Of a DNA stretch of 64,000 nucleotides, positions 13,391 to 27,417 are shown piece by piece. Each line of letters starts with the position of its first letter. Within the stretch, counting starts at the first letter, position 1. Position numbers and translations under genes: made by a program. The notes beneath the pieces are model-generated. The model had not been told where the DNA came from, searched no databases, and saw nothing but the letters and a program-made list of their open reading frames with translations. Source of the DNA: Candidatus Latescibacterota bacterium (lineage in GTDB: Bacteria > Latescibacterota > UBA2968 > UBA8231); NCBI GenBank assembly GCA_965248355.1, contig OZ252098.1, positions 384,001 through 448,000 of the forward strand, in the 5' to 3' direction.

Positions 13391-14051
13391 GTTCTCTCCA
13401 GGGATCGGGAAGGCCCGCCGCGGCGAAGCCACGGGACCGGAGGCGGCAACTGTGGCAGTCACCGCAGGGGAAGTCGGAGCCAAGGTAGCAGGACCAGGTC
13501 AGGTGCAGGGGTGCTCCCAGCTCCACTCCGCGCCGGACGATGGCGGCCTTGTCGAGGTGGAGCAGGGGCGTGCGCACGCCGATCTCCACCGAGGCCGGGG
13601 TCGCCGCCTCGACGAGCCGGCCGAAGGCGCGGAAGAAGGCCGGTTGCGTATCCGGATAGGGCGATCCGGGAGCGTGGGCCCCGCAGAAGACCTCCGGGGC
13701 GCCGAGAACCTCGGCCCAGGCGACCGCCGCCGCCAGGAGACTGGCGTTGCGAAAGGGGACGTACGTCCCCGGCACCTCACCGCCGCCGGAGCCGTCCCCG
13801 GCGACCGGGAGAGTCCGGTCGGTCAGGCTTGAGCCGCCGAGGTCCCGCAGGTACCGGAGGTCGACCTCCCGCCGGCGCGAGAGGTTGTAGTGATCGGCGA
13901 TCTCCAGGAAGGCCCGCCGCTCCCGGCCCTCGGTTCGCTGGCCGTACCCGGCGTGCATCACCGCTACATCCTCTCCATGGCTTCGCAGGGCTTCCGCCAG
14001 GGCGACACAGCTGTCGAGACCCCCGCTCACGAGGGCGATGGCGGCGGTCAT
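13368..14051 (-). CDS. queC: 7-cyano-7-deazaguanine synthase
   Basis: SGGLDS PP-loop, YGQR, TYVPFRN, TWSCY...CGDCHSCRLR. Confidence 0.93.
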   Translation of the reverse strand: MTAAIALVSGGLDSCVALAEALRSHGEDVAVMHAGYGQRTEGRERRAFLEIADHYNLSRRREVDLRYLRDLGGSSLTDRTLPVAGDGSGGGEVPGTYVPFRNASLLAAAVAWAEVLGAPEVFCGAHAPGSPYPDTQPAFFRAFGRLVEAATPASVEIGVRTPLLHLDKAAIVRRGVELGAPLHLTWSCYLGSDFPCGDCHSCRLRSRGFAAAGLPDPWREHADRIRE

Positions 14052-14113
14052 TGCGAGTGCGGCGGCGGGAATGGAGGGAACCCGGGCAGGAGATGGGCCT
14101 CCCCAATATAAGA

Positions 14114-14141
14114 TTGACACCCCCGGGGGGGTGCATAGATT
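14114..14141 (+). promoter_or_regulatory. Putative sigma70 promoter for ispH and the BMC genes, probably leaderless
   Basis: TTGACA (14114-14119), 16-nt spacer, TAGATT (14136-14141). The ispH ATG follows 8 nt later with no Shine-Dalgarno. Confidence 0.6.
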
Positions 14142-14149
14142 CTCGCGCC

Positions 14150-15436
14150 ATGGCCTTCAAGCAGTTCGACCGGGTGCCCAATCACTACGCCGGCCCCGTC
14201 ATCCAGCGGATCAAGGACTTCCGGGAAAGCGAGGGCAAGCGCTCGCTGGCGCCGACGCGCCTGACCGTTGGCCAGCTCGAGGTGATCGTGCCCCGCCACT
14301 TCGGCTTCTGCTTCGGCGTGGAGCGCGCCATCCACATGGCCTTCTCCGCCATCGACAACCATCCCGACAAGCGGCTCAACCTCCTCAGCGAGATCATCCA
14401 CAACCCCCTGGTCAACGAGGACCTCGAGAACCGGGGGGTCCGATTCATCTACGACAGGAACGGCGAATACGACAGGAACGGCGAACGGCGCGTCGCGGAG
14501 GAGGAGATTTCTTCCGAAGACGTGGTCCTGATCCCCGCTTTCGGCACCACGCGGGAGATCGAGGACTCCCTGCAGCGCAGCGGCATCGACACCACGTCCG
14601 AGGATTTTCGCGAGAACTACGACACCACCTGTCCCTTCGTCTCCAAGGTCTGGAGTCGCGGCGAGGAGCTGGCCCGCGAAGGCTACACCATTCTCATCCA
14701 CGGCAAGTTCCGGCACGAGGAGACCCAGGCCACGCGCTCCCACACCCAGCAGTACGGCAAGACCCTGGTCGTCCTCGACCGGGAGGAAGCGCTGAAGGTG
14801 GCCCGCTTCATCGCCGGCCAGATGAGCGTCGACGAGTTCCGCGAGGGCTTCGAGGGCAAGTGGTCGGAAGGCTTCGACCCGGACCGGGACCTGGCCCGGG
14901 TGGCCGTCGTCAACCAGACGACGATGCTCGCCGAGGAGACCCAGGAGGTGACCGGCATCATCCGCGACGCCATCGCCGAGCGCTACGGCTTCGAGGTCCT
15001 CGACCACCACTTCGCCGATACCGCCGACACTCTGTGCTACGCCACCAACTGGAACCAGAACGCCACCAAGGCGCTCCTCGACGTCCAGCCGGACCTGGCC
15101 GTCATCGTCGGCGGCTACAACAGCTCCAACACCTCCCACCTGGTGGAAATCTGCGAACGCGTGATGCCGAGCTACCTGATCGGTTCGGCCGCCGACCTGC
15201 TGTCCCGGGAGCGCATCCGTCACTTCGACATCCACCGCAAGGAGATCGTCGAGACCCGGAGGTGGCTCCCGGAGGAATTGCCCGTGCGACTGGCCGTCAC
15301 CTCCGGCGCCAGCTGCCCGGACGTGCTGATGAACGACGTGGTGCAGCGCCTCTCCGCCTTCTACGGATACGGCGGCGACGACATCCAGGCCGGGCTCACG
15401 AATCTGGCTCTGCACGAGCCCGCGGTTCTGACCTGA
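14150..15436 (+). CDS. ispH: 4-hydroxy-3-methylbut-2-enyl diphosphate reductase
   Basis: FGFCFGVERA, EIIHNP, AFG, DTTCPFV, HEET, NQTTM, TLCYAT, GGYNSSNT, TSGASCP. Confidence 0.95.
   Translation: MAFKQFDRVPNHYAGPVIQRIKDFRESEGKRSLAPTRLTVGQLEVIVPRHFGFCFGVERAIHMAFSAIDNHPDKRLNLLSEIIHNPLVNEDLENRGVRFIYDRNGEYDRNGERRVAEEEISSEDVVLIPAFGTTREIEDSLQRSGIDTTSEDFRENYDTTCPFVSKVWSRGEELAREGYTILIHGKFRHEETQATRSHTQQYGKTLVVLDREEALKVARFIAGQMSVDEFREGFEGKWSEGFDPDRDLARVAVVNQTTMLAEETQEVTGIIRDAIAERYGFEVLDHHFADTADTLCYATNWNQNATKALLDVQPDLAVIVGGYNSSNTSHLVEICERVMPSYLIGSAADLLSRERIRHFDIHRKEIVETRRWLPEELPVRLAVTSGASCPDVLMNDVVQRLSAFYGYGGDDIQAGLTNLALHEPAVLT
14450..14485 (+). repeat. Perfect 18-bp tandem duplication inside ispH
   Basis: TACGACAGGAACGGCGAA twice, encoding YDRNGE YDRNGE. 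Confidence 0.9.
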
Positions 15437-15441
15437 CAGAG

Positions 15442-15744
15442 ATGGTCCTGGCGCGGGTCAAGGGGCAGGCGGTGGCCTCGGCCAAGGTCGCCGATCTCGA
15501 GGGCCGGAGACTGCTGCTCGTGGAGTTGCTCACCGTCGACGGCGACGAGGTCGTCCCCACCCGCAGGCACATGGTCTGCGTCGACTCCGTGGGCGCCGGC
15601 CAGGGCGAGGTCGTCCTTCTCGTGCAGGGCAGCTCGGCCCGTCAGAGTCCGGGGATGGGGGACCTTCCCGTGGACGCCGTTCTGGTGGGCATCGTCCAGT
15701 CGGTCAGCGCCCGGGGTCATCGACTCGTACAGGCCGCCGCATGA
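15442..15744 (+). CDS. BMC vertex protein (BMC-P, EutN/CcmL family) 1
   Basis: MVLARVKGQAVASAK...VCVDSVGAGQGEVVLLVQGSSAR...PVDAVLVGIV. Confidence 0.92.
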   Translation: MVLARVKGQAVASAKVADLEGRRLLLVELLTVDGDEVVPTRRHMVCVDSVGAGQGEVVLLVQGSSARQSPGMGDLPVDAVLVGIVQSVSARGHRLVQAAA

Positions 15745-15998
15745 GAATGGCACGGGTCATCGGCAACGTCGTCGCCGGCGAACACCATCCCGCCCTCGAT
15801 CACCGCACGATCCTGGTCGTCGACGATGGCGGGGGCACCGCCCTGCAGCTGGCGGTCGACGCCGTGGGCGCGGGCCCTGGCTGCCGGGTCCTGGTCGCGG
15901 ATTCGGGCGCCGCCGGCCGCGAGGTCACGGGTCTCGAGTTCCCGCCCGTGCGCAGCGTCGTCGTGGGTATCGTCGACGGCCCCGGCGAGGCGCCGTGA
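15741..15998 (+). CDS. BMC vertex protein (BMC-P, EutN/CcmL family) 2
   Basis: MRMARVIGNVVA...LAVDAVGAGPG..VLV..SG.A.R...PVRSVVVGIVD. Confidence 0.9.
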   Translation: MRMARVIGNVVAGEHHPALDHRTILVVDDGGGTALQLAVDAVGAGPGCRVLVADSGAAGREVTGLEFPPVRSVVVGIVDGPGEAP

Positions 15999-16267
15999 AG
16001 CTGGCCCGCGTTCTCGGTCAGGTCGTTCTGTCGCCGAAGATCGAGCCGTACCGGGACAGGAGCCTGCACCTGATTCAGGACGTGAACCGCGAGCTGCAGG
16101 GCGTGGGCGATCCCGAGGTGGCCGTCACCTGGCAGGCCATGGCCGAGGGAGACCTGGTCGTCGTCGAGGTCGCCCGGGAGGCGTGCAACGCCTTCGACAA
16201 CACGATCCCGGCCGACGCCGTCATCATCGGCCGCGCCGACCGGGTTCACATCGATACCGCTTCCTGA
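15995..16267 (+). CDS. BMC vertex protein (BMC-P, EutN/CcmL family) 3, divergent
   Basis: MKLARVLGQVVLSPK...GDLVVVEVAREA...PADAVIIGRAD; lacks the usual DxxGAG motif. Confidence 0.85.
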   Translation: MKLARVLGQVVLSPKIEPYRDRSLHLIQDVNRELQGVGDPEVAVTWQAMAEGDLVVVEVAREACNAFDNTIPADAVIIGRADRVHIDTAS

Positions 16268-16285
16268 GGGGCAGGCAGGAGAGAT

Positions 16286-16843
16286 ATGACAGAGGCTCTG
16301 GGCATGTTGGAGACGGTGGGGCTCACGGGCGCGATCGCCGGCGGAGATGCGATTTCGAAGGCGGCGAAGGTGGAGCTCCTGGGCTGGGACCGGGTGGGCT
16401 CGGGGATGGCGACCGTGTTCTGCGGCGGCGACGTGGCGGCGGTGAAGTCGGCGGTCGACGCCGGTGCGCAGGCGGCGTCGAAGGTGGGAGAGGTGCGCGC
16501 CGTGCACGTGATTCCGCGGCCCCATGCCGACCTGGGGCCGATCCTGCCTTCGAACGGGGGGGGGGAGGTGAGCGGGGTCCGCGCCCTGGGGATGGTGGAG
16601 ACCCGCGGCTCGACGGGGGTCATCGAGGCCGCGGACGCCATGGAGAAGGCGGCGGAGGTGGAGGTGGTCCGCGTCCAGGAGATCGGGGGCGGCTACATCA
16701 CGGTGCTGGTCACCGGGGACGTGGGCAGCGTGCAGTCGGCGGTCACGGCGGGAGCGGAGGCGGCGGAGCGCGTGGGCGAACTGCTCGCACGCCACGTCAT
16801 CGCCCGTCCGTCGGAGGCCGTGCTCTCATTGTATCTGGGATGA
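16286..16843 (+). CDS. BMC shell protein with two tandem Pfam00936-type domains
   Basis: Two ALGM(L/V)ET.G...D.xxKAA.V...GDV..V.SAV.AG...HVI(P/A)RP units. Confidence 0.92.
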
Positions 16844-16856
16844 AAGGGAGAAGGTC

Positions 16857-17123
16857 ATGAGTGCCTTGGGCATGGTGGAGACGCGGGGTCTGGCGGCGGC
16901 TGTGGAGGCCCTGGACGCGATGCTGAAGACGGCGGACGTGAGGTACACGGGCCAGAAGCGTGTGGGCGGGGGCCTGGTGTCGGTCCTGGTGGAGGGGGAC
17001 GTGGCCTCGGTGAAGTCGGCGGTCGACGCCGGCGCCCAGGCGGCCCAGGGCGTGGGGGAGCTGCGCAGCGTGCACGTGATCCCCCGGCCGATCGACAAGC
17101 TCAAGAGCGCCGCCGGCATCTGA
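16857..17123 (+). CDS. BMC-H hexamer shell protein (PduA/EutM-like)
   Basis: [26 protein letters not shown]...[23 protein letters not shown]...HVIPRP. Confidence 0.96.
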
Positions 17124-17133
17124 CGGGACCGTC

Positions 17134-18558
17134 GTGGCCAAGGTGAGCGAAGACGGGGTCCGCCGCATCGTCGAGGAGGTTGTGGAGCAGGCCCTCGGTT
17201 CAGGGGCCGGATCCGGGGCCCCGGCTGCGGGCGGGTCCGGGGCGGGTCTGTTCCGTTCCGCCGACGAGGCCGTGGCCGCAGCCGGCCGGGCGCAGAGGTC
17301 CCTCGTCGAGCAGAGCCTGGAGCTGAGGCGCAAGATCGTCGAGGCGATCCGGCAGACGACCCGCGACCACGCCGAGACGTTCTCGCGCATGGCCCTCGAA
17401 GAGACGGGCATGGGCCGCTTCGAGGACAAGGTGCAGAAGCACCATCTGGCGGCCGATCTGACCCCCGGCGTCGAGGACCTCGAGTCGGTCTCGTGGACCG
17501 GGGACCACGGCCTGACCGTGGAGGAGATGGCGCCGTATGGCGTCATCTGCGCCGTCACGCCCTCCACCCACCCCGTACCGACCCTGGTGAACAACGCCAT
17601 CGGCATCATCGCCGCGGGCAACTCCGTCGTCTTCAATCCTCACCCCGGCGCCAAGGGAGTCTCCGCCCACTCGGTGCAGCTGCTGAACGACGCCATCGTC
17701 GCCGCCGGCGGGCCCGGGAACCTGATCGCCTGCATCGCCGAGCCGACGATCGAGAGCGCCGGCCAACTGTTCAACCACCGGGGGGTCGGGGTCATACTCG
17801 TCACGGGGGGGGCCGCAGTGGCCCGGGCGGCCCTCGCAAGTCCGAAGAAGTCCATCGTCGCCGGACCGGGGAATCCCCCGGTCGTCGTCGACGAGACCGC
17901 GGACCTCCGCAAGGCCGCGCGGGACATCGTCGACGGGGCCGCCTTCGACAACAACATCCTGTGCATCGGCGAGAAGCAGTGCTTCGTGGTCGACGCCGTG
18001 GCCGACGACCTCAAGGCGGAGATGGTCGCCTACAGCGCGGTCGAGCTCGACCCGGGTCAGGTCGACGCCCTGACCCGCGCGGTCCTGCCCCGGGGCGGGG
18101 ACGGCGAGCATCACCCGAGCCGCGACTTCATCGGCCGCAACGCCAACGTCCTGGGCCGGAGCATCGGCCTGGACCTCGACGACCGGCTGCGGCTGCTGAT
18201 CGGCGAGACCGGCGCCGACCATCCCTTCGTCACGGTGGAGCAGATGATGACCTTCCTGCCCATCGTCCGGGTGCGCGACGTGAGCGAGGGCATCCGCGCC
18301 GCCGTCGAGTCGGAGCACGGCTTCCGCCACACGGCGGTCATCCATTCCCGGAACGTGGAGAACATGCACAACATGGCGCGCGCCGTGGACACCACCGTGT
18401 TCGTCAAGAACGGACCTTCCTACGCCGGTCTCGGCGTCGGCGGCGAAGGGTTCTCCACGTACTCCATCGCCGGCCCCACCGGCGAAGGGCTGACCACGGC
18501 CCGCACTTTTACCCGCCGGCGTCGCTGCGCCCTGGTGGACTACTTCCGCATCACCTGA
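17134..18558 (+). CDS. CoA-acylating aldehyde dehydrogenase (EutE/PduP-type) with N-terminal encapsulation peptide
   Basis: EETGMG, PYGVI..VTPSTHP, VTGG, AGPGNPP, FDNNILCIGEK (catalytic Cys), EHGFRHTA, GPTGEG. The N-terminal helix SEDGVRRIVEEVVEQAL is followed by a Gly/Ala linker. Confidence 0.93.
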   Translation: MAKVSEDGVRRIVEEVVEQALGSGAGSGAPAAGGSGAGLFRSADEAVAAAGRAQRSLVEQSLELRRKIVEAIRQTTRDHAETFSRMALEETGMGRFEDKVQKHHLAADLTPGVEDLESVSWTGDHGLTVEEMAPYGVICAVTPSTHPVPTLVNNAIGIIAAGNSVVFNPHPGAKGVSAHSVQLLNDAIVAAGGPGNLIACIAEPTIESAGQLFNHRGVGVILVTGGAAVARAALASPKKSIVAGPGNPPVVVDETADLRKAARDIVDGAAFDNNILCIGEKQCFVVDAVADDLKAEMVAYSAVELDPGQVDALTRAVLPRGGDGEHHPSRDFIGRNANVLGRSIGLDLDDRLRLLIGETGADHPFVTVEQMMTFLPIVRVRDVSEGIRAAVESEHGFRHTAVIHSRNVENMHNMARAVDTTVFVKNGPSYAGLGVGGEGFSTYSIAGPTGEGLTTARTFTRRRRCALVDYFRIT

Positions 18559-18561
18559 CCC

Positions 18562-18879
18562 ATGCTCCTCGCCCAGGTGAAGGGTCAAGTCGTGGCCAGC
18601 GCCAAGCTCGACAACCTGTCGGGCCGCAAGCTGCTGCTCGCCGAGGTCCTCACCGTTCGTCCCGACGGGCTGCACGCCACCGGCCGTGAGGTGGTCTGCG
18701 TCGACGCCGTGAGCGCCGGCAGGGGCGACATCGTCCTCGTCGTCATGGGCAGCTCGGCGCGCACGGCCCCGGAGCTGGGCACGGTCCCCACCGACGCCGC
18801 CATCGTCGCCATCCTCGAGGGTCTGACCGCCGACGGCCGGAGGCTCGATCTGGGTCGCGTCGTCGAAGGGGCCGGGTGA
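18562..18879 (+). CDS. BMC vertex protein (BMC-P, EutN/CcmL family) 4
   Basis: MLLAQVKGQVVASAK...VCVDAVSAGRGDIVLVVMGSSAR...TDAAIVAIL; close paralog of 15442-15744. Confidence 0.92.
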   Translation: MLLAQVKGQVVASAKLDNLSGRKLLLAEVLTVRPDGLHATGREVVCVDAVSAGRGDIVLVVMGSSARTAPELGTVPTDAAIVAILEGLTADGRRLDLGRVVEGAG

Positions 18880-19586
18880 AGGGCGAAGTGGTCGCCGCCG
18901 TCGACAGGGCCCGGGTGGAGGCGCTGGTCCGCCAGGCCCTGAAGCACCGACTCCCGAATCACCCGGTGGACGCCAGGCCTTCGAGTCCGGCGCCCCGCCT
19001 GGTCGCCAACATCTCGGCCAGGCACTGTCACCTCGACGCGGGATCCCTGGAGACGCTCTTCGGCAAGGGCGCGGAGCTGAAGGTGCTCAAACCTCTCTAC
19101 CAGGCCGGCGCCTTCGCCGCCGAAGAGACGGTGACCATCTTCGGACCGCGCAAGCAGATGATCTCCAACCTGCGCGTCCTCGGACCGCTGCGCGAGGCCT
19201 GCCAGGTGGAGCTCGCCTTCTCCGACGCGCGCTTTCTCGGCATCGACGCCCCGGTGCGGCTCAGCGGACACATCGACGGTTCCCCCGGATGCTACCTGGT
19301 GGGGCCCGCCGGCGGCCAGGAGATGGGCCAGGGCGTGATCCGCGCGGCCCGCCACGTGCACATGAACCCCGAGGAGGCGGCGTTCTACGGCGTCGCCGGC
19401 GGCGACCGAATGCGCCTGGTCGTCCGCAGCGATCAGCCGGGAGCCCTCGAGGACGTGATCGTGCGAGTCGATGCCGGCTCGAAGCTCGAGGTCCACGTCG
19501 ATACCGACGAGGGTAACGCCGTGGATCTCGTCAGCGCCGCAAAGGTCGTTCTCGAGAAGCAACAGCCGGGCGAGGGCAGGCCATGA
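18876..19586 (+). CDS. pduL: PduL-type phosphate acyltransferase with N-terminal encapsulation peptide
   Basis: SARHCHL, LYQAGAFAA.E.V, RVLGPLR..QVE, RHVHM, HVDTDEGNA. N-terminal helix VDRARVEALVRQALKHRL. Confidence 0.92.
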   Translation: MKGEVVAAVDRARVEALVRQALKHRLPNHPVDARPSSPAPRLVANISARHCHLDAGSLETLFGKGAELKVLKPLYQAGAFAAEETVTIFGPRKQMISNLRVLGPLREACQVELAFSDARFLGIDAPVRLSGHIDGSPGCYLVGPAGGQEMGQGVIRAARHVHMNPEEAAFYGVAGGDRMRLVVRSDQPGALEDVIVRVDAGSKLEVHVDTDEGNAVDLVSAAKVVLEKQQPGEGRP

Positions 19587-19668
19587 GCGCCTTGGGCATG
19601 GTGGAGACGCGGGGCCTGGCGGCCGCGGTAGAGGCGACGTGGCCTCGGTGAAGTCGGCGGGCATCTGA
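19583..19668 (+). pseudogene. Internally deleted remnant of a second BMC-H gene
   Basis: These 86 nt match the start ([17 protein letters not shown]), middle (GDVASVKSA) and end (GI-stop plus downstream CGGG) of 16857-17123, with two deletions and a frameshift. Confidence 0.85.
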
Positions 19669-19671
19669 CGG

Positions 19672-20151
19672 GTGACGGGCCGACTGCACATCTCCGAGGC
19701 CGTTGTCACCGAGGAGGTCCTGCGCGCCCGTCACGCCGGACAGGAGGAGGTATCGGTGAACGCCGGGGCGGTGGTGACGCCCACCGGGTGGGACTACCTG
19801 CGGCGCCACCGGATGCGGCTGACCCGGGGCCAGGCGGCAGAGCCGGGCGGTTCCCAGCCGGCGTCCGGCGAGGTCCCGGAGGTGCTGCCGCCGGGCGCCG
19901 AGGGCGGGCTGCTGAGCCGCGGACGCTGCGACCACCCCGACCGCCCGTACGGCTGCAAGACCGAGGAATTCGGCTCCGGATTCGTGGAGCCTTCCTCCTG
20001 CTCCCGGTGCGCGGTGTACCAGGCGGAGCTGGCGGGCCGGCCGAGTTGCGGCTGTGGCGGCTGCAACCGCCGGGTCGCGGCCGAGGAGGAGGAGGAGGCC
20101 CTGGTGCAGCGTCTCACCGACGAGATCATGCGCAGGCTGAAGGAGGAGTGA
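19672..20151 (+). CDS. BMC-associated hypothetical protein: small N-terminal domain, 7-Cys region, C-terminal encapsulation peptide
   Basis: VVTEEVL...AVVTPTGWDYLR; C-x8-C...CxxC...CGCGGC; C-terminus EEALVQRLTDEIMRRLKEE. Confidence 0.75.
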   Translation: MTGRLHISEAVVTEEVLRARHAGQEEVSVNAGAVVTPTGWDYLRRHRMRLTRGQAAEPGGSQPASGEVPEVLPPGAEGGLLSRGRCDHPDRPYGCKTEEFGSGFVEPSSCSRCAVYQAELAGRPSCGCGGCNRRVAAEEEEEALVQRLTDEIMRRLKEE

Positions 20152-20156
20152 GGGGC

Positions 20157-20735
20157 GTGTCCGAGGCCATCGGGATGATCGAGGTGGAGGGAGTGGCGGG
20201 CATCGTCGTCGGCGCCGACGCGGCCTGCAAGGCGGCCCAGGTCGAGCTCATGGGCTGGGAGTCGATCGGCGGTTTCACGACCCTCTTCCTGCGCGGCCCT
20301 CTCGGTGACGTGAGCGCCGCCCTTCGCGAAGGCGAAGCGGCGGCCGGGACCGTGACCGGCCACGTGGTCAGCGCCTGCCTGGATCAGCCGCAGCCCGAGT
20401 GCGCCGGCTTCGTCGGTTGTCCCCGGTCGCCGGGCGAGGTGGAGGCGGCCGCCCTGGGCCTGATCGAGACCCGGGGGTACGGCGTCCACGTGGAGGTGAA
20501 CGACGCCATGGTCAAGGCCGCCGGCGTGGCGGTGGCCAACGTGCTCACCGTGCACAACCGCGTCGTGTGCAGCCTGATCACCGGTCCCGTGGACGCCGTG
20601 GAGCAGGCCATCGGCCGCGGCCGGGAGCGGTTGGCCGGCGACGAGTGGTTCATGGCCTCGGCCGTGATCCCACAGCCCCTCCCGTCGGTGCTGAGCGCCT
20701 TCGTCCTCTTCCGTCCCACCGCCGGGACGAGCTGA
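20157..20735 (+). CDS. Divergent BMC shell protein with two tandem domains
   Basis: AIGMIEVEG...DAACKAAQV and ALGLIETRG...DAMVKAAGV...GPVDAVEQAI. GTG 20157 follows GGAGGAG. Confidence 0.88.
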   Translation: MSEAIGMIEVEGVAGIVVGADAACKAAQVELMGWESIGGFTTLFLRGPLGDVSAALREGEAAAGTVTGHVVSACLDQPQPECAGFVGCPRSPGEVEAAALGLIETRGYGVHVEVNDAMVKAAGVAVANVLTVHNRVVCSLITGPVDAVEQAIGRGRERLAGDEWFMASAVIPQPLPSVLSAFVLFRPTAGTS

Positions 20736-21886
20736 TGGAGCGCGCCCTGGGCATCCTGGAGGTCAGGGGCATGACGGCCCTGGCGGCGGCCCTCGACTCG
20801 ATGCACAAGGCGGCCTCCGTGCGGCTGGCCGGACGCCACGGGGTCGGCTCCGGCTGGTTGACGGCGATCGTCGAGGGCGCCACGGCGGACGCGCGCACCG
20901 CCCTCGACGCGGGTCGCGAGGCGGCCGCCGCCCACGGCGACGTGATCACCGCCGTCGTCGTTCCGGGAGCCGAGCCCGCGGCCCTCGAGCCGATGCCCCA
21001 CTCCGGCGTCTCCCTCGAGGCCGGGACCGGTCTCCAGGCCCTCGGCCTTCTCGAGACCCGGGGCCTCGTCCCCCTGGCCGCCGGCGCCGACGCCATGGTC
21101 AAGGCGGCCGACGTGGAGCTCCACGGCTGGTCCTTCATCGGCGGCGCCTTGATGCACGCCGCGGTCACCGGCTCCGTGGGGGCCGTGGAGGCCGCCGTGC
21201 AGGCCGGGGAGCGGTCCGCCCGGAGGGCGGGCGAGTTCCATGGCGCCCTGGTGCTTCCCCAACCGGAGCCCCAGGTGGGAGTCCTGCTGCCCTCCGGGCC
21301 GGCGGGAACTCCGCCGCCCGCCGGCGCCCTCGGGATCGTCGAGGCCACGGGGTACGTGGCCTCGGTGGCCGCCGGCGACGGCATGGTGAAGGGAGCACGC
21401 GTCGACCTGGCGCGGCTGACCATCGGCAGCGGGGGCCGGGTGGCGGCCGTCGCCACCGGAGCCCTGGACGAAGTCGGCGCCGCCGTCGCGGAGGGGGCCC
21501 GCCGGGTCGAGGAGACGGCGGAGCTCGAGGGGCAGGTGGTGATCAGCGGTCCCGACCCCCGAGTCCTGGCCTGCTTCGCCCAGGCCGCCGGGTCCCCCGG
21601 CGAGCGCCCTCTCGCGGGCCGGGCCATGGGCCTGGTGGAGACGCGCACCACCATCGGTCTCGCAAAGGCCCTCGACGAGATGCTCAAGAACGCCGACGTG
21701 ACCTACGAGGGCCGGTACAAGGCGGGCTACTTCCTCACGGCCTGTGTCGTGCGCGGAGAGACGGGGGCCGTCGACACCGCTCTCGACGTGGCGCGGCGCA
21801 CCGCCGGTCGCTACGGGGAGCTGGTGGCCGCCCGCGCCATCCCCTTACCCTATGACGAGATGGAGGTGCGCCTGCCTCACGGGTAG
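20735..21886 (+). CDS. BMC shell protein with four tandem domains (383 aa)
   Basis: Four units begin ALGILEVRG, ALGLLETRG, ALGIVEATG and AMGLVETRT, each with D-x-M-x-K. TGATG overlap with the upstream gene. Confidence 0.9.
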   Translation: MERALGILEVRGMTALAAALDSMHKAASVRLAGRHGVGSGWLTAIVEGATADARTALDAGREAAAAHGDVITAVVVPGAEPAALEPMPHSGVSLEAGTGLQALGLLETRGLVPLAAGADAMVKAADVELHGWSFIGGALMHAAVTGSVGAVEAAVQAGERSARRAGEFHGALVLPQPEPQVGVLLPSGPAGTPPPAGALGIVEATGYVASVAAGDGMVKGARVDLARLTIGSGGRVAAVATGALDEVGAAVAEGARRVEETAELEGQVVISGPDPRVLACFAQAAGSPGERPLAGRAMGLVETRTTIGLAKALDEMLKNADVTYEGRYKAGYFLTACVVRGETGAVDTALDVARRTAGRYGELVAARAIPLPYDEMEVRLPHG

Positions 21887-23098
21887 GTGTCCCAGGACAT
21901 GGTCCGTATCGACGATCCCGTAGTCACCGCCCAACTGCTCGAGGGCCGTCTCGGGCAGGACGACCGGCAGGTCGAGATCTCACCGCGTTCGACGGTCACC
22001 CCCTCCGCCAAGGATCTCCTGCGGGCCCGGGGGATCGAAGTCGTGCCGCCGTCGCAGGGCGCGTCCAGCCCCGCGCTCCCGCCCGCCGGCGTGCCCGCGC
22101 CTCCGGGAGGAACCGAGCGGAGCCGCCGGTTCAGCGGCATCTTCACGCCCAACATCGTGATCTACGACGAGCAGGGGCGGATCGCCTACGGCGAGATGGA
22201 GCGCTACATCGCGTGGCTCATCGACGCCGGCATCCACGGACTCTACCCGAACGGCAGCACGGGGGAGTTCGTGCGCCTCTCCAGCGAGGAACGGCGCGAC
22301 GTGGTGCGGCTCATCGCCGAGGTCAACCAGGGCCGGGTGCCGATCCTGGCCGGCGCCAGCGAGGCCAACATCCGCGACGTGCTGCAGATGGCCGAGTACT
22401 ACGCCGACCTCGGCGCCGACGCCATCTCCCTCGTGCCGCCCTACTACTACAAGATCTCCGACACGAGCCTGTACGAGTACTTCGCCGAGATCGCCCGCCA
22501 CTCCCCCCTCGACATCCTGCTCTACAACATCCCGCAGTTCACCCAGGAGCTGCCCCTGGACACGATGGAGCAGCTCCTCGCCTACGAACGCATCTTCGGC
22601 ACCAAGGATTCCAGCCGCGACCTGCCGCGCATCGTCAACACCATGGATCGCCTGCGCCGGCACCGGCCCGACTACGTCGTGCTCAACGGCTGCGAGGAGA
22701 TCCTGCTGCCGTCGATCGTCATGGGGGCCAACGGCGGCACCATCGCCACCTCCGGCATCGTTCCCGAGATCATCGTCGAGCTCTACGACCGCACCGTCGC
22801 CGGGGATCTCCAGCGGGCGAAGGAGCTTCAGTACCGTCTCCTGCCCCTGATCAACCTCATGCTGCTGGGGGTGAATTTCCCCGAGGGATTCAAGACCGGC
22901 GTGGCCGTGCGCGGCTTCGAGGTCGGTCCGCCGCGGACCGTGCTGAGCGCCGAGGAGCGCGACTACCTGCTGCGCCTGGAGTCCGAGATCGGCTGCGTCC
23001 TTGGCGACATGGGTTATTCCGTCCGCGGTGCCCGGGGTTGCCCGGTGACCCATCTGCCGCCCATCGTGGCCGGCCGGAAGCCCCCGCCCGGGGGCTGA
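21887..23098 (+). CDS. DHDPS/N-acetylneuraminate lyase family class I aldolase with extra N-terminal domain
   Basis: YPNGSTGEF, PPYYY, LYNIPQFT, GTKDSS (Schiff-base Lys); about 80-aa N-terminal extension. Confidence 0.88.
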   Translation: MSQDMVRIDDPVVTAQLLEGRLGQDDRQVEISPRSTVTPSAKDLLRARGIEVVPPSQGASSPALPPAGVPAPPGGTERSRRFSGIFTPNIVIYDEQGRIAYGEMERYIAWLIDAGIHGLYPNGSTGEFVRLSSEERRDVVRLIAEVNQGRVPILAGASEANIRDVLQMAEYYADLGADAISLVPPYYYKISDTSLYEYFAEIARHSPLDILLYNIPQFTQELPLDTMEQLLAYERIFGTKDSSRDLPRIVNTMDRLRRHRPDYVVLNGCEEILLPSIVMGANGGTIATSGIVPEIIVELYDRTVAGDLQRAKELQYRLLPLINLMLLGVNFPEGFKTGVAVRGFEVGPPRTVLSAEERDYLLRLESEIGCVLGDMGYSVRGARGCPVTHLPPIVAGRKPPPGG

Positions 23099-23120
23099 GG
23101 CCGCCCGGCAGGCCTCGATC

Positions 23121-24221
23121 GTGAGCGCCGGGGACCGCGCCCGGGTCCTGGTGGCCGGCGCCGGCATCGTCGGACGTTCCGTCGCCTACTACCTCTCCCG
23201 GTCGGGTGTCTCCGTGGTAGTCGCCGACCGGGATCCGTCGCCTTCCGCCACCACCCGGGCCTCCCTCGGCGTCCTCACCCGGCCCACCGGAGGGGAGGAT
23301 CCGTTCTCCTCCTTCCACCGGGACGGCCATGCCCTGCACGAGGAGCTGAGCGTCCGGCTGCGCGAGGAGACCGGCCGTGACGCGGGCTGGCGGCCCCTCG
23401 GAGGACTGGACCTGGCCTTCGGCGAGGAGGAGGCCGAGGGGCTACGCTCCCTCGTCGATGAGAGCCGGTCTCGTGGAGTCCGGGCCGAGTGGCTCGAGCC
23501 GCGCCAGGTGCGGGAGGCGGAGCCGGCCCTGTCGGAGGCCGTGTGCGGGGCTTCCTTCTACCCCCAGGACAGCCGCGTCGACCCGCCGAGCCTGGCGTCG
23601 GTGCTGCAACGGGCGGCCGAGGCCCGGGGCGCCGAGTTCCGCTTCCAGGCCACGGTGGCGGCTTTGCGTACCACGTCCGGAGGAGTGGAGTGCGATCTGC
23701 GCGACGGCGCCGGATCCCGGCGAGCCGTCTTCGATGCGGCCGTGATCGCCGCCGGATCCTGGTCGGGGGAGATCGCCGGTCCGGCGGCCGGGAGGCTGCA
23801 GGTGCGCCCGGTACGTGGCCAGAGCGGTCTGTTCTCCGGCGACCCCGTACACCACCTGGTGCGCTGGTCCGGGATGCACGTGCTGCCGGTCCCAGGGGGC
23901 CTCCTCGCAGGGGGAACGGTGGAGGAGGCCGGGTTCAGCGCCGGGACCACGCCAGCGGCGGGGCGGAAGCTGACCGCCTGGTGCGAGCGCGTCCTGGCCC
24001 GCAAGCCGATCCTGCGCCGGCAGCGCGCCGGGCTGCGTCCCAAGCCGCGGCAGGGCCGCCCCCTCGTCGGCCCCCTGCCCGGTGCCGCGAACCTGTGGGC
24101 GGCCACCGGGCACTACAGGAACGGCGTGCTGTTGGCTCCGATCACGGGCCAGGTCCTGGCCCGGTGGCTGACAGGGGGCGAGCCCGGCCGGGACATGTCC
24201 CGCTTTGCCGTCGATCGTTGA
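23121..24221 (+). CDS. FAD-dependent oxidoreductase (glycine oxidase ThiO/DadA-like)
   Basis: GAGIVG, AAGSWS, PVRGQ, AGLRP, ATGHYRNGVLLAPITG. Confidence 0.85.
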   Translation: MSAGDRARVLVAGAGIVGRSVAYYLSRSGVSVVVADRDPSPSATTRASLGVLTRPTGGEDPFSSFHRDGHALHEELSVRLREETGRDAGWRPLGGLDLAFGEEEAEGLRSLVDESRSRGVRAEWLEPRQVREAEPALSEAVCGASFYPQDSRVDPPSLASVLQRAAEARGAEFRFQATVAALRTTSGGVECDLRDGAGSRRAVFDAAVIAAGSWSGEIAGPAAGRLQVRPVRGQSGLFSGDPVHHLVRWSGMHVLPVPGGLLAGGTVEEAGFSAGTTPAAGRKLTAWCERVLARKPILRRQRAGLRPKPRQGRPLVGPLPGAANLWAATGHYRNGVLLAPITGQVLARWLTGGEPGRDMSRFAVDR

Positions 24222-24296
24222 CGGCCGTCGAGGGGCCTCCGTACTCTCTACGGCCTCTGCCGACCGTCGCCCTTACCCAACCGACCGGAGCCCTGC

Positions 24297-25238
24297 ATGC
24301 CCTACAGCACCGAAGATCTGCTCGACGCCCTGGACACGGTCATCTCGATCCCCATCGTCCCCTTCCGCGCAGGCCGGATCGACTACGAAGCCCACGGAAA
24401 GAACATCGACTACCTCCTGGGCACGAAGGCGCTGGAGGGGGACCGCGAGCGCGTGATCTCCATCGCCGGCACGAGCCTCGTGCACCATATCGATACGGAC
24501 GAGCAGCTGAACCTGATGGAGTACACGGCGGCCCGGGTGGCGGGCAGGGGCATCTTCATCTCCGGCGTGGCACCCAACCCCCTGGCCGACGCCGAGCGGC
24601 TGATCGCGGCCCAGTGCCGCCTGGCGAATCCGCCCGACGCCTTTCTGCTCATGCCGCTGACGGGGGTGGCCGATCCGCAGGGCATCTACCACGGGTACAT
24701 GGCCCTGGCGGAGAGGCTCGGAGGGGACCACGGCGCTCGCTTCCTCTACTACCTGCGACAGTCCAACCAGGCGCCGGCCGCCGTGCGGCTGGTGAACGAT
24801 TCGCCCCACTTTCTCGGGGTCAAGATCGGCACCCGCCCCGAGGACGTGAAGCCCATGGTGGAGGGCGTCCGGAAGGGCGCCGGCATCGTCATCTGGGGGA
24901 TCGGCGACCGCAGCACGGGACCGGCCCGGGAGGGCGCCAGAGGCCACACCTCGGGGATCAACGTGGTCTTCGCCAAGGCCTCCGACGAGATCAACAACGC
25001 CCAGCGCCGCGGAGACTACGAGCGCGCCGGGCAGGTCGAGGAGGAGCTGACGGCCCTGGAGGAGATCCGCTTCCGCGACGATCGCCGCTACAACTACTCC
25101 GCTGTGGTCGAGGCCATGCACCTGAGCGGGTTCGACGATATCGAGGGCGGCGAGGGCGGTCCCTTCAACCCGCGGGTGCCCTCCGAAGTGGCCGGCGAGG
25201 TGGAGGCCGCCATCCGGCCGATCCTGCACTACCACTGA
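24297..25238 (+). CDS. Divergent DHDPS-family TIM-barrel protein (possible keto-deoxy sugar acid aldolase/dehydratase)
   Basis: IPIVPF..GRIDY, FLYYLR, FLGVKIG, GARGHTSG; the usual GTTGE is replaced by AGTS. Confidence 0.7.
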   Translation: MPYSTEDLLDALDTVISIPIVPFRAGRIDYEAHGKNIDYLLGTKALEGDRERVISIAGTSLVHHIDTDEQLNLMEYTAARVAGRGIFISGVAPNPLADAERLIAAQCRLANPPDAFLLMPLTGVADPQGIYHGYMALAERLGGDHGARFLYYLRQSNQAPAAVRLVNDSPHFLGVKIGTRPEDVKPMVEGVRKGAGIVIWGIGDRSTGPAREGARGHTSGINVVFAKASDEINNAQRRGDYERAGQVEEELTALEEIRFRDDRRYNYSAVVEAMHLSGFDDIEGGEGGPFNPRVPSEVAGEVEAAIRPILHYH

Positions 25239-25266
25239 GCCCCGCCGCCCGGGGGGAGGAGGGTAC

Positions 25267-25566
25267 CTACCCCGGCCCTCGGAGCCGCTGGAGGTAGTCC
25301 TCCCATTCGAGGGGCAGCAGGTCCTTCTTGCGGGTGTTGCAGTCCTTGCAGCAGGGCACGACGTTGCCCCTCTCGCTGCAACCGCCGCGCACGATGGGCA
25401 CGACGTGGTCCATGGTGAGCTCTCGCGGCGGCGTCGGGCAGCCGCAGTAGTGGCACCTGCCGAGGCCGAGCCGGCGTTTCCACCACTGGCTGTCCCGGAG
25501 ATCCCGGGCCTTGCGCTTCTCCCGGACGATGTGCTCCTGGGAAGCCGGTGTGAACCAGGGTTCCAC
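25267..25566 (-). CDS. Small HNH endonuclease family protein
   Basis: CHYCG...LTMDHVVPIVRGG...NVVPCCKDCNTRKK. GTG start at 25566. Confidence 0.85.
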   Translation of the reverse strand: MEPWFTPASQEHIVREKRKARDLRDSQWWKRRLGLGRCHYCGCPTPPRELTMDHVVPIVRGGCSERGNVVPCCKDCNTRKKDLLPLEWEDYLQRLRGPG

Positions 25567-25580
25567 GAGGCGAGACTCGT

Positions 25581-26246
25581 CTACAGCACGTCCACGTAGA
25601 TCGCCTCGGCCACGTCGAGACCGATGTGCTGCTCTCCGGAGTGGCCCACGTCGAGGCGCAGGGGGCCGCGGAAGGGAGCCCGGTCCCGCACTCGGACCTC
25701 GGTGCCGAGGACGAGCCCGCTGCGGTCGAGGTATCGCAGAAGCTCCGGGTCGCGGTCGCTCACCTGCCGGATGCGTCCCCGCTGCCCCGTGCTCAACTCG
25801 GACAGCCGCGCGTAGTCGTGCTCGGCGATGACCCCGTCCTTGGTGGGGATCGGCTCGCCGTGGGCGCCCACCGTGGGGTGCCCCAGGGCCTTGTCGATGC
25901 GGTCCTCGAAGTCCTCCGAGATCACGTGTTCGAGGCGGTCGGCCTCGGCGTCGACCTGGTCCCACTCGTAGCCCAGAGCCTCGCGGAGATAGAGCTCGAG
26001 CAAGCGGTGATGGCGCACGATCTCCAGGGCGATCTTCTCACCCGAGGGGGTCAGCTCCACCCCCTGGTACGGATGGTGGTCGAGGAGCCGCATCTCGGCC
26101 AGTTTCTTGATCATGTTCGTGGCCGACGCCGCCGAGACGTGCAGGCGCCCGGCGATATGCGAAGTCGTCACCATACCGCCGGCTTCCCGGGCCCGCGAGA
26201 GCTTGAAGATCGCCTTCAGGTAGTCCTGTATCGCATCGCTGAGCAT
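25581..26246 (-). CDS. mntR: DtxR/MntR family metal-dependent repressor with C-terminal FeoA-like domain
   Basis: QDYLKAIF, SATNMIKKL, RHHRLLELYL, EADRLEHVIS, HGEPIP. Confidence 0.9.
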   Translation of the reverse strand: MLSDAIQDYLKAIFKLSRAREAGGMVTTSHIAGRLHVSAASATNMIKKLAEMRLLDHHPYQGVELTPSGEKIALEIVRHHRLLELYLREALGYEWDQVDAEADRLEHVISEDFEDRIDKALGHPTVGAHGEPIPTKDGVIAEHDYARLSELSTGQRGRIRQVSDRDPELLRYLDRSGLVLGTEVRVRDRAPFRGPLRLDVGHSGEQHIGLDVAEAIYVDVL

Positions 26247-26291
26247 CGTTCCTCCAACCTAATGAGCCCGTCCGTCCGTCCGCCAGCGGTC

Positions 26292-26320
26292 TTGACGGGC
26301 CACGGGGACCGAGGTATTCT
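26292..26320 (+). promoter_or_regulatory. sigma70 promoter of the DtxR-FeoA / split feoB operon
   Basis: TTGACG (26292-26297), 17-nt spacer, TATTCT (26315-26320). Confidence 0.75.
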
Positions 26321-26330
26321 ATCGGACAAT

Positions 26331-26344
26331 CTAGTCTCGCCTAA
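26331..26344. promoter_or_regulatory. Putative DtxR/MntR operator
   Basis: CTAGTCTCGCCTAA matches the palindrome TTAGGCTAGCCTAA at 11/14 and lies just downstream of the -10 box. Confidence 0.55.
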
Positions 26345-26355
26345 AAATAAAGTTA

Positions 26356-27417
26356 ATGCCCATGGATTCCTCCACTTTCCTCTATTGGGGAGCCGGCTTG
26401 GTGGCCGCTCTGGCCCTGCTCCTGTGGCCCGGGCGCGGTTGCCTGCGCCGATGGCGCCGGCTGGAGGGGCTGCGGGAGCGAATCCTGCTGGAGGACGGGC
26501 TCAAGCACCTCTACGACTGCGAGTACCAGGAGCGTACCGCCAGCGTCGAGAGCCTCGCAGGGGCCATCGAGGTCCCGAAGAGCCGCGCCGCAACCGTCCT
26601 CATCCGGCTGGAGTCCCTGGGGCTCGTCTCCACACTGGAGCACGGCATGGCCCTGACCGGCTATGGCCGGGACGAGGCCCTCCGGATCGTGCGTATCCAC
26701 CGACTCTGGGAACGCTACCTGGCCGAGCGCACCGGCGTCAGCCGGTCCCGCTGGCACGAGGAAGCGGAGCGCCGGGAGCACCACCTCTCGGCTGAGGAGA
26801 TGGAGAAGCTGTCCCGGGAGATGGGCCACCCGACCTACGATCCCCACGGCGATCCGATCCCCACGGCGGAAGGGGAGGTGCCCCCGCCCAGGACGGTCCG
26901 CCTGCCGGCCCTCGAGGAGGGCGAGCTGGCCCGGATCGAGCACGTCGAGGACGAGCCCGAGGAGGTCTACCGCCAGCTGACGGAAGCCGGCCTGCATCCG
27001 GGCACCCGGGTGCAGCTGGTGAGCGCCGGCGAAGAGGAGATCCGGCTGGTCGCCGACGGCCGGTCTCACAGCCTGCCGCCGGTGGTGGCCGGCAACGTCT
27101 TCGTGCACCCGGTGGACGGAGAGATGCCGGGGCCGTACGACAGCCTGGACGAGCTGGCCCGGGGAGAGCGGGCCCGCGTGGTGGGCATCTCGCCCGCCTG
27201 CCGGGGCCTGGAGCGCCGCCGGCTGCTGGACCTGGGCCTGCTGCCGGGGACCGAGGTCCGCGTCGAGATGGTGAGCCCCACCGGCGATCCGGTGGCCTAC
27301 CAGGTGCGCGGGGCGACGGTCGCTCTGCGGCGTCAGCAGGCCGGGCAGATCCAGGTCGAGCGCGACCTGCCGGAGGCGCCCCCGGCCGCCGCTCTGCAAG
27401 GAAAGGGATCGAGATGA
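26356..27417 (+). CDS. Fusion: N-terminal TM helix + DtxR-like domain + two FeoA domains
   Basis: [26 protein letters not shown]...[10 protein letters not shown]...HEEAERREH...[29 protein letters not shown]...[16 protein letters not shown]. Confidence 0.85.

Follow-up and report, generated by a model that had tools for sequence, protein, structure and literature searches.

Many catalogued bacterial microcompartment (BMC) types have no known aldehyde source, and a locus in the genome of a Candidatus Latescibacterota bacterium raises the question of which enzyme supplies the aldehyde to its organelle. The genome (G000 in our comparisons; assembly GCA_965248355.1) is a single contig of 5.5 Mb with about 70% G+C, and the window analysed is a stretch of 64,000 nucleotides from it, positions 384,001 to 448,000 of contig OZ252098.1 (G000:C1:384001-448000); coordinates given below are those of the window unless another contig or locus is named. 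Twelve organelle genes lie in one same-strand run at 15442-23098 (+). A preliminary description of this DNA had proposed that one of their products, a class I aldolase of the dihydrodipicolinate synthase/N-acetylneuraminate lyase (DHDPS/NAL) family, is the signature enzyme of an atypical organelle that degrades a keto-deoxy sugar acid. Our analysis favours, with moderate confidence, a different answer: a metabolosome of the class II aldolase lineage, related to the fucose/rhamnose organelle of Planctomycetes and Verrucomicrobia (PVM) and similar (PVM-like) systems, has gained a class I aldolase module, and the aldehyde passes through a shared route formed by a CoA-acylating aldehyde dehydrogenase (AldDH) and a PduL-type phosphotransacylase. 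This is a candidate answer to the question of the aldehyde source for one widespread type, found in assemblies labelled Latescibacterota and Gemmatimonadota.

Organelle core and the class II aldolase

Gene families were called by Pfam and NCBIfam profile searches, with the NCBIfam cut-offs of each model. The locus is a genuine locus of a protein-shelled bacterial organelle (metabolosome), as it combines hexamer-type and tandem (BMC-H/T) and pentamer-type (BMC-P) shell genes with an AldDH carrying an extension similar to an encapsulation peptide (EP) and with PduL. The AldDH gene (17134-18558, +; PF00171) scores 643 bits with the model PRK15398 (cut-off 403), and its product starts with an amphipathic helix followed by a Gly-rich linker, an EP-like arrangement. 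PduL (18876-19586, +) matches PF06130 at residues 45-217 and PRK15070 with 217 bits (cut-off 209), and bears an N-terminal extension of about 40 residues that includes a helix. The N-terminal helices of both enzymes had been pointed out in the preliminary description, whose gene inventory (four BMC-P genes, one BMC-H, two tandem and one four-domain shell genes, AldDH, PduL, a Cys-rich protein, and the DHDPS/NAL-family enzyme) was likewise borne out gene for gene by Pfam and NCBIfam. Its statement that the locus has no diol dehydratase, ethanolamine ammonia-lyase, glycyl-radical enzyme, class II aldolase, DeoC, alcohol dehydrogenase, kinase, or regulator holds for the genes annotated at 14150-25238. 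As for alcohol dehydrogenases elsewhere in the genome, the search, which covered the Fe-ADH class, yielded four homologues, none with a terminal extension.

The genome contains exactly one class II aldolase gene (PF00596), encoding a protein of 255 amino acids with the Pfam domain at residues 17-192, and this gene sits two genes away from a satellite BMC-H gene. The protein ends in a linker and an amphipathic EP-like helix; this tail is conserved in six of the seven sequences compared, the seventh being a 33%-identical paralogue without the extension, from G106. The gene order BMC-H, membrane protein, class II aldolase recurs in G004 and G005, i.e., in two of the three other satellites examined, the third being too short. 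The genome also has one acetate kinase gene, unlinked to the organelle locus. In the relatives G001 and G003, a PVM-like architecture is present as one locus: the class II aldolase gene is located inside the main locus together with genes for PduL, BMC-H, AldDH, BMC-P, and acetate kinase, and it is the class I aldolase with its two shell genes (T2 and Q4, see below) that forms a satellite.

A phylum survey covered 168 genomes, which were searched for AldDH, both aldolases, and the four-domain shell protein Q4. Of these genomes, 142 proved to have AldDH and 145 the class II aldolase; the two occur together in 130 of the 142 AldDH genomes, as against 76 that have the class I enzyme with its N-terminal domain. 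Among the 79 genomes with the latter enzyme, 72 also have the class II aldolase. The AldDH and class II aldolase genes are adjacent in the genomes compared from families f2, f3, f4, f10, and f14, about 6 kb apart in G016 (family f9), and distant from each other in the f1 genomes compared. AldDH genomes with the class II but without the class I aldolase occur in f2, f4, f9, and f10.

These results changed the view of the class I enzyme as the sole signature enzyme of a non-PVM organelle. The preliminary description had named in advance, as the finding that would count against that view, another signature-type enzyme with an EP elsewhere in the genome, and the genome-wide search for such satellite enzymes found one, the EP-bearing class II aldolase beside the satellite BMC-H. 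Apart from this aldolase, the earlier account had missed the two satellite BMC-H genes, the acetate kinase gene elsewhere, and the flanks of the run, with ispH on one side and the genes of an FAD oxidase and a second DHDPS-family protein (DHDPS2) on the other. A signature enzyme called from the main locus alone can thus mislead.

PVM, PVM-like, and 'SPU-like' loci have in common with the present genome AldDH, PduL, and an aldolase of class II (PF00596); acetate kinase, a further gene of such loci, is represented in G000 by one unlinked copy. The work of Axen et al. (2014; PMC4207490) describes Latescibacteria loci from two single-cell genomes that have these four genes and are termed 'SPU-like', and Youssef et al. 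(2015) assigned a Latescibacteria organelle to fucose and rhamnose catabolism. The numbers of shell genes, four BMC-P against one BMC-H in the locus and three BMC-H in the genome, agree with the shell-gene criterion of Axen et al. (2014) for PVM and PVM-like loci. The differences from these types are that in G000 neither the class II aldolase gene nor that of acetate kinase is linked to the main locus, that an extra module (Cys-rich protein, T2, Q4, and class I aldolase) is present, and that the window locus showed no alcohol dehydrogenase of the lactate/malate dehydrogenase type, DeoR regulator, PduS, or RpiB. The organelle works like members of the PVM/PVM-like family and, to judge from its AldDH, PduL, acetate kinase, and class II aldolase, probably descends from that family.

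The proposed scheme is as follows. The window would hold the main locus of a multi-locus metabolosome, the conserved core of which in the phylum would consist of a class II aldolase bearing a C-terminal EP, the acylating AldDH, and PduL. In G000, this aldolase would have been relocated to a satellite, next to a BMC-H gene, and in about half of the phylum, G000 included, a module comprising the Cys-rich protein, T2, Q4, and the class I aldolase would have been added. The N-terminal domain of the latter enzyme may target it to the lumen or to the shell, as a C-terminal EP would do in other families, and its substrate may be a 4-hydroxy-2-oxo acid (a 2-keto-3-deoxy sugar acid being the likeliest), which it would split into pyruvate and an aldehyde. 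AldDH would oxidise the aldehydes from both aldolases to acyl-CoA, and PduL would convert acyl-CoA to acyl-phosphate, which the unlinked acetate kinase could then use. Observed directly are the identities of the genes, their linkage, the catalytic residues, the EP-like helices, and the phyletic distribution; that the enzymes are encapsulated, which way the reaction runs, and what it acts on we infer. The organelle genes would then be spread over several loci, the class II aldolase residing in a satellite and the class I module being added with its own shell proteins.

The class I aldolase module

The gene at 21887-23098 (+) encodes a pyruvate aldolase/lyase of class I (Schiff-base type) that belongs to the DHDPS/NAL family; the protein has 403 amino acids and matches PF00701 at residues 82-359. 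It was aligned to DapA, NanA, and YagE of Escherichia coli (from NC_000913.3). The Schiff-base Lys161, Tyr133, Tyr106/107, and a NanA-like GSTGE motif are retained, and the enzyme looks CATALYTICALLY intact, whereas the position of DapA Arg138, which binds aspartate semialdehyde, is occupied by Phe. The score with the dapA model TIGR00674 is 155.4 bits (cut-off 206.15), and the N-acetylneuraminate lyase models NF003164 and TIGR00683 give 160.6 (cut-off 281) and 135 bits (cut-off 382), respectively; no NCBIfam equivalog cut-off is passed. As the preliminary proposal requires, DapA identity is ruled out by the score below the cut-off, Phe at position 138, and GSTGE instead of GTTGE. The genome has 12 matches to PF00701, 11 of them above the Pfam cut-off, and one paralogue (C1:80203-81096), with GTTGE and Arg138, is likely the true DapA.

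Among solved structures, the closest relatives of the class I aldolase include DHDPS, 2-keto-3-deoxygluconate aldolase, and YagE alike, at about 120-130 bits, so its specificity cannot be read off from them. With the 2-keto-3-deoxy sugar-acid aldolases of the YagE/YjhH type and with NanA it shares the fold family PF00701, the Lys, Tyr133, GSxGE, and a residue other than Arg at position 138, and YagE is among its better sequence matches in the PDB (122 bits). However, the identity to these enzymes is about 30% (an estimate rather than a computed value), and the window aldolase is set apart by its linkage to shell genes and by three additional parts: about 53 residues that form an N-terminal domain, a linker, and a conserved C-terminal segment that contains Cys.

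Close homologues of the enzyme, proteins of about 390-400 amino acids that are 68-100% identical over 97% of its length, are numerous and come from assemblies which, where named, are labelled Latescibacterota and Gemmatimonadota; at 50% clustering, the family forms about one cluster, followed by a steep drop. Linkage was assessed in a comparison set of 56 related loci. Genes for a tandem shell protein (T2), the four-domain shell protein (Q4), and the aldolase are adjacent and in this order in 52 of them; of the other four, two have Q4 and the aldolase at the edge of the locus and two start at the aldolase. The linkage of the aldolase to shell genes in relatives, on which the preliminary description had made its proposal depend, is thus seen in 54/54 loci that have upstream sequence. 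AldDH lies within 33 of the 56 loci, and 15-16 are of a satellite type, with T2-Q4-aldolase alone in foreign surroundings.

In the phylum survey, a match to the aldolase was found in 85/168 genomes. The form with the N-terminal domain (at least 63% identity) accounts for 79, namely 59/75 genomes of family f1, 17/22 of f3, and 2/31 of f4, while six genomes of f13/f14 have a homologue about 50% identical (47-52%) without this domain. In 4/4 f13/f14 loci examined, the gene of this homologue directly adjoins a two-domain BMC gene, and in 4/4 the protein ends in an amphipathic helix after a linker rich in Gly, Pro, and Ser, an extension of the classical EP kind. At every active-site residue compared, the f13/f14 homologues match the window aldolase. 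Given the linkage to shell genes and the EPs of the f13/f14 homologues, the window aldolase is very probably organelle cargo, and the earlier suggestion that a DHDPS-fold enzyme can serve as aldehyde-forming cargo gains credibility from these distant EP-bearing relatives. Our reading is that the window lineage may have replaced the C-terminal EP by the N-terminal domain.

Residues ~5-53 of the aldolase, hereafter the N-domain, are strongly conserved and followed by a variable linker. The N-domain is homologous (BLASTP E-value 7e-5) to the N-terminus of the Cys-rich protein encoded in the same run (19672-20151, +), which matches no Pfam or NCBIfam family; in loci without a gene for the Cys-rich protein, a tblastn search with this protein lands on the N-terminus of the aldolase. 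In the AlphaFold2 model, residues 11-50 of the Cys-rich protein form a beta-alpha-beta-alpha-beta unit with a pLDDT of 96-98. The elements of the N-domain recur in the model of the full-length aldolase (mean pLDDT 64), in which the linker is disordered. For the model of the Cys-rich protein, Foldseek found nothing in the PDB at E ≤ 0.001, and the wide VIA-align search gave generic folds with a best Z of 5.1 and no clear match to the N-domain. A predicted complex of T2, Q4, and aldolase residues 1-58 scored 0.00, which counts neither for nor against an interaction.

According to an alignment of 26 orthologues, the Cys-rich protein consists of the N-domain of about 50 residues, six conserved Cys residues with the spacing C-x8-C-x14-C-x2-C-x14-C-x2-C, and a C-terminal amphipathic EP-like helix, which resembles that of the class II aldolase. 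In the AlphaFold2 model the helix has a pLDDT of about 90 and the Cys region one below 50. We suspect that the cysteines bind a metal or an Fe-S cluster.

T2 (20148-20735, +) has two PF00936 domains, and Q4 (20735-21886, +; 383 amino acids) has four. Q4 is a single open reading frame (ORF) of 379-394 amino acids in 51 related loci; it occurs in 83/168 genomes, with nearly the same distribution as the aldolase, and in 77 of the 79 genomes with the N-domain aldolase. T2 always accompanies Q4 and the aldolase. Three Q4 chains would supply twelve BMC domains, i.e., two pseudohexamers. A bolder extension of the scheme, which we offer tentatively, is that the class I aldolase has been recruited by two different targeting devices, the N-domain and the C-terminal peptide, always together with dedicated shell proteins, that two deoxy-sugar routes, phosphorylated and non-phosphorylated, feed one aldehyde pool, and that the N-domain is a new module for encapsulation or docking to the shell.

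Could the DHDPS-fold aldolase nevertheless be the single signature enzyme of a separate organelle for keto-deoxy sugar acids, to which the class II aldolase is unrelated? The invariant linkage to shell genes and the EPs on the homologues agree with this, as do the sugar-acid genes adjoining one homologue (see below) and the situation in genus g5 (G105 and G106; 91-93% complete), where the BMC locus includes the class I aldolase and an orthologue of the class II enzyme is lacking (the best match in G106 is 33% identical), so that the class I enzyme can be the sole aldolase. We nonetheless consider such a separate organelle improbable, as the only class II aldolase of the genome has an EP-like helix and lies by a satellite BMC-H gene, the same enzyme is encoded within the main BMC locus of G001 and G003, and in the survey it accompanies AldDH much more widely than the class I enzyme does, also where the latter is missing. 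The aldehyde supply of the organelle is modular.

Substrate and the adjacent FAD oxidase

The proposal of a keto-deoxy sugar acid as the substrate stood in part: genes of the MR_MLE (enolase superfamily) sugar-acid dehydratase type do occur near the aldolase in two independent contexts, while the substrate itself is still deduced from such surroundings. In locus L090, the genes for a short-chain dehydrogenase/reductase (SDR) and an MR_MLE dehydratase-type protein directly precede the aldolase homologue on the same strand; in L035, two MR_MLE genes lie near the satellite, one of them above the galactonate dehydratase cut-off. GlcD/GlcF-like genes for 2-hydroxy-acid oxidases flank the aldolase homologue in L090 and L093, an arrangement in keeping with an end product of lactate or glycolate, and hence with lactaldehyde or glycolaldehyde as the intermediate. 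G000 encodes a rhamnulokinase-like protein (42% identity) and a rhamnose mutarotase, the EP-bearing enzyme being its sole aldolase of class II; the contexts of these genes and of the xylonate dehydratase gene in G000 contain no pathway clusters. The weakest step of the scheme is the identity of the organelle aldehyde, probably a 2-hydroxy-aldehyde (either lactaldehyde or glycolaldehyde). In tblastn searches of G000, MR_MLE queries gave 27-46 matches and an HpcH/HpaI aldolase query gave 8. The gene content points to a very broad catabolism of sugar acids and amino acids in this bacterium.

Several observations weigh against the scheme of two aldolases feeding one organelle. The satellite-type loci with MR_MLE neighbours belong to one close clade (80-97% identity) and also contain a true DapF, so the MR_MLE context of the satellites carries little weight. 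Queries with RhaA and FucI of E. coli match nothing in the genome, and, like the class I aldolase, neither the dehydratase of L090 nor the class II aldolase passes any NCBIfam equivalog cut-off. Pentonate breakdown by xylonate dehydratase was rejected as a universal upstream step: the orthologue was found in 0/8 genomes of genus g12 and 0/5 of family f14, where the aldolase is present, yet it does occur in aldolase-less genera. In genus g11 (G114 and G115), represented by single contigs that are 91-93% complete, AldDH, PduL, T2, Q4, and the Cys-rich protein are present, and neither aldolase was found at the thresholds used; hence, neither is indispensable, and a third aldehyde source may exist. 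G107 and G109 retain Q4 and the FAD oxidase without the class I aldolase. The case for encapsulation of this aldolase is built on gene linkage and the EPs of its homologues, its own N-domain having no fold match; moreover, synteny throughout family f1 extends over the whole neighbourhood (a formamidase-like gene, queC, ispH, HNH, and dtxR), which means that common descent, not independent maintenance, accounts for much of the linkage.

Immediately downstream of the aldolase gene lies a gene for a glycine-oxidase-like FAD oxidoreductase (23121-24221, +; PF01266), followed by DHDPS2 (24297-25238, +), a second divergent DHDPS-family protein (PF00701, E-value 4e-10), which keeps the equivalents of the Lys and Tyr133 and has lost the GxTGE motif. 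The top PDB sequence matches of the oxidase are glycine oxidases, and its score with the ThiO model is 202 bits (cut-off 250.8). A housekeeping ThiO role was rejected, given this score and the lack of ThiG in the genome; for ThiG, the search gave no more than a partial match of 26 bits, and the two ThiO-like oxidases of the genome both score below the cut-off.

KdgD-type dehydratases and deaminases of the hydroxyproline pathway are also members of the DHDPS superfamily. It is therefore conceivable, if doubtful, that the FAD oxidase and a DHDPS-family lyase, deaminase, or dehydratase convert an amino or imino acid, via a 2-oxo or cyclic imino acid, to the confined aldehyde, such as glyoxylate or 2-oxoglutarate semialdehyde. 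The oxidase gene directly follows the aldolase gene in 39 of the 56 loci (DHDPS2 being present in 33), and where the aldolase is missing, in G107, G109, and G114, it directly follows Q4; G114 and G115 combine organelle genes and the oxidase with neither aldolase. Besides the fact that the oxidase is not the housekeeping ThiO, this reading can appeal to the weak scores of KdgD models in the NCBIfam search and to three places in the genome (at about 407 kb, 4757 kb, and 4856-4859 kb of G000:C1) where genes for DAO-family oxidases and DHDPS-family proteins are close together. However, neither the oxidase nor DHDPS2 has a terminal extension or EP-like helix, and both are absent from the satellite-type and the f13/f14 aldolase loci. 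The housekeeping gene ispH is just as tightly joined to the operon; since ispH, queC, HNH, and dtxR are equally syntenic, the adjacency of the oxidase says little. No member of the proline-racemase family was found in the genome, which also weakens the canonical trans-4-hydroxyproline pathway as a candidate. Furthermore, we know of no microcompartment precedent for acyl-CoA/acyl-phosphate chemistry with aldehydes of this kind.

Least probable, in our view, is that the class I aldolase is a cytosolic enzyme, or one condensing pyruvate with escaping aldehyde, that is merely co-regulated with T2 and Q4: DHDPS/NAL aldolases are reversible, and the N-domain is no canonical amphipathic EP and has no fold match, but the f13/f14 homologues carry a canonical C-terminal EP beside a shell gene in all four cases, the Cys-rich protein, with an EP-like helix at its own C-terminus, has the N-domain as well, and the co-occurrence with Q4 is strict.

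Other microcompartment types and the setting of the locus

Two further catalogued types resemble the organelle as reconstructed above. The main text of Sutter et al. (2021; PMC8217296) describes MUF2 as a metabolosome of unknown function with no obvious signature enzyme. This description is compatible with the AldDH and PduL core seen here and mentions no DHDPS-family enzyme, four-domain shell protein, or class II aldolase satellite. The HO type, also a metabolosome of unknown function, has in common with the locus a BMC-P triplet, AldDH, and an associated aldolase, the family of which is not named in the main text. However, the window BMC-H is closer to PduA/EutM (about 96 bits) than to HO-5815 (80 bits), and the tandem proteins T1 and T2, as well as Q4, have canonical non-permuted domains, whereas HO has double-stacking BMC-T. 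The papers searched contained no mention of a four-domain BMC protein or of a DHDPS-family enzyme as microcompartment cargo; the supplements of the 2021 catalogue may contain them. The additions made here are the class II aldolase satellite, the phylum-wide pattern of two aldolases, the EP on distant class I homologues, the shared N-domain, and the T2-Q4-aldolase module. The small N-domain common to two proteins, the four-domain shell protein, and the EP-bearing Cys-rich protein are also parts for engineering and structural work.

The run of organelle genes starts with three BMC-P (vertex pentamer) genes matching PF03319: P1 (15442-15744, +; E-value 4e-23), P2 (15741-15998, +; 4e-18), and P3 (15995-16267, +; 4e-11), a triplet that is kept in related loci. 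It is followed by the tandem two-domain gene T1 (16286-16843, +; two PF00936 domains), the top PDB sequence match of which is a tandem fusion of BMC-H, followed by PduA/EutM, and by the gene for the BMC-H hexamer protein (16857-17123, +; PF00936, E-value 3e-27), which is PduA/EutM-like. The fourth BMC-P gene (18562-18879, +; PF03319, E-value 6e-22) lies between those of AldDH and PduL. The genes of the run are closely packed: no gap or overlap exceeds about 85 bp. In total, the genome contains 11 PF00936 domains, four PF03319 genes, and three BMC-H genes.

The second satellite BMC-H gene encodes a protein of 154 amino acids with a C-terminal extension and is followed by a gene for a helical-looking protein of 130 amino acids without Pfam matches, the two being at G000:C1:3004837-3005706 (L080 9837-10706). 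This pair recurs in the relative G003 (L078 15549-16445), where it stands after a BMC-H gene.

On the same strand, the run extends upstream to ispH (14150-15436, +; PF02401), which ends 5 bp before P1, and downstream to the genes for the FAD oxidase and DHDPS2. The sole sigma-70-like site upstream of the run, in a scan of 13500-26500, is at 14114-14141, and the essential isoprenoid gene ispH appears to head the organelle operon. IspH is of a long form (428 amino acids), the LYTB model of 267 positions being stretched over residues 45-401. In G114 (L086), a dimethylglycine-dehydrogenase-like gene (DAO and GCV_T domains) and a homocysteine S-methyltransferase gene are inserted between queC and ispH.

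Beyond DHDPS2, an annotated HNH ORF of 232 amino acids (25267-25965, -) overlaps that of DtxR (25581-26246, -). The HNH proteins of relatives have only about 100 amino acids, and the real gene here is probably the 3' third of the listed ORF, at about 25267-25570. Finally, a gene of the fumarylacetoacetate hydrolase family was found on the opposite strand in the BMC loci of G109 (L087 5729-6631, -) and G107 (L088 15479-16285, +). Its best NCBIfam match is 2,4-didehydro-3-deoxy-L-rhamnonate hydrolase (212 bits, cut-off 500), and G000 has two homologues of this gene elsewhere in the genome.

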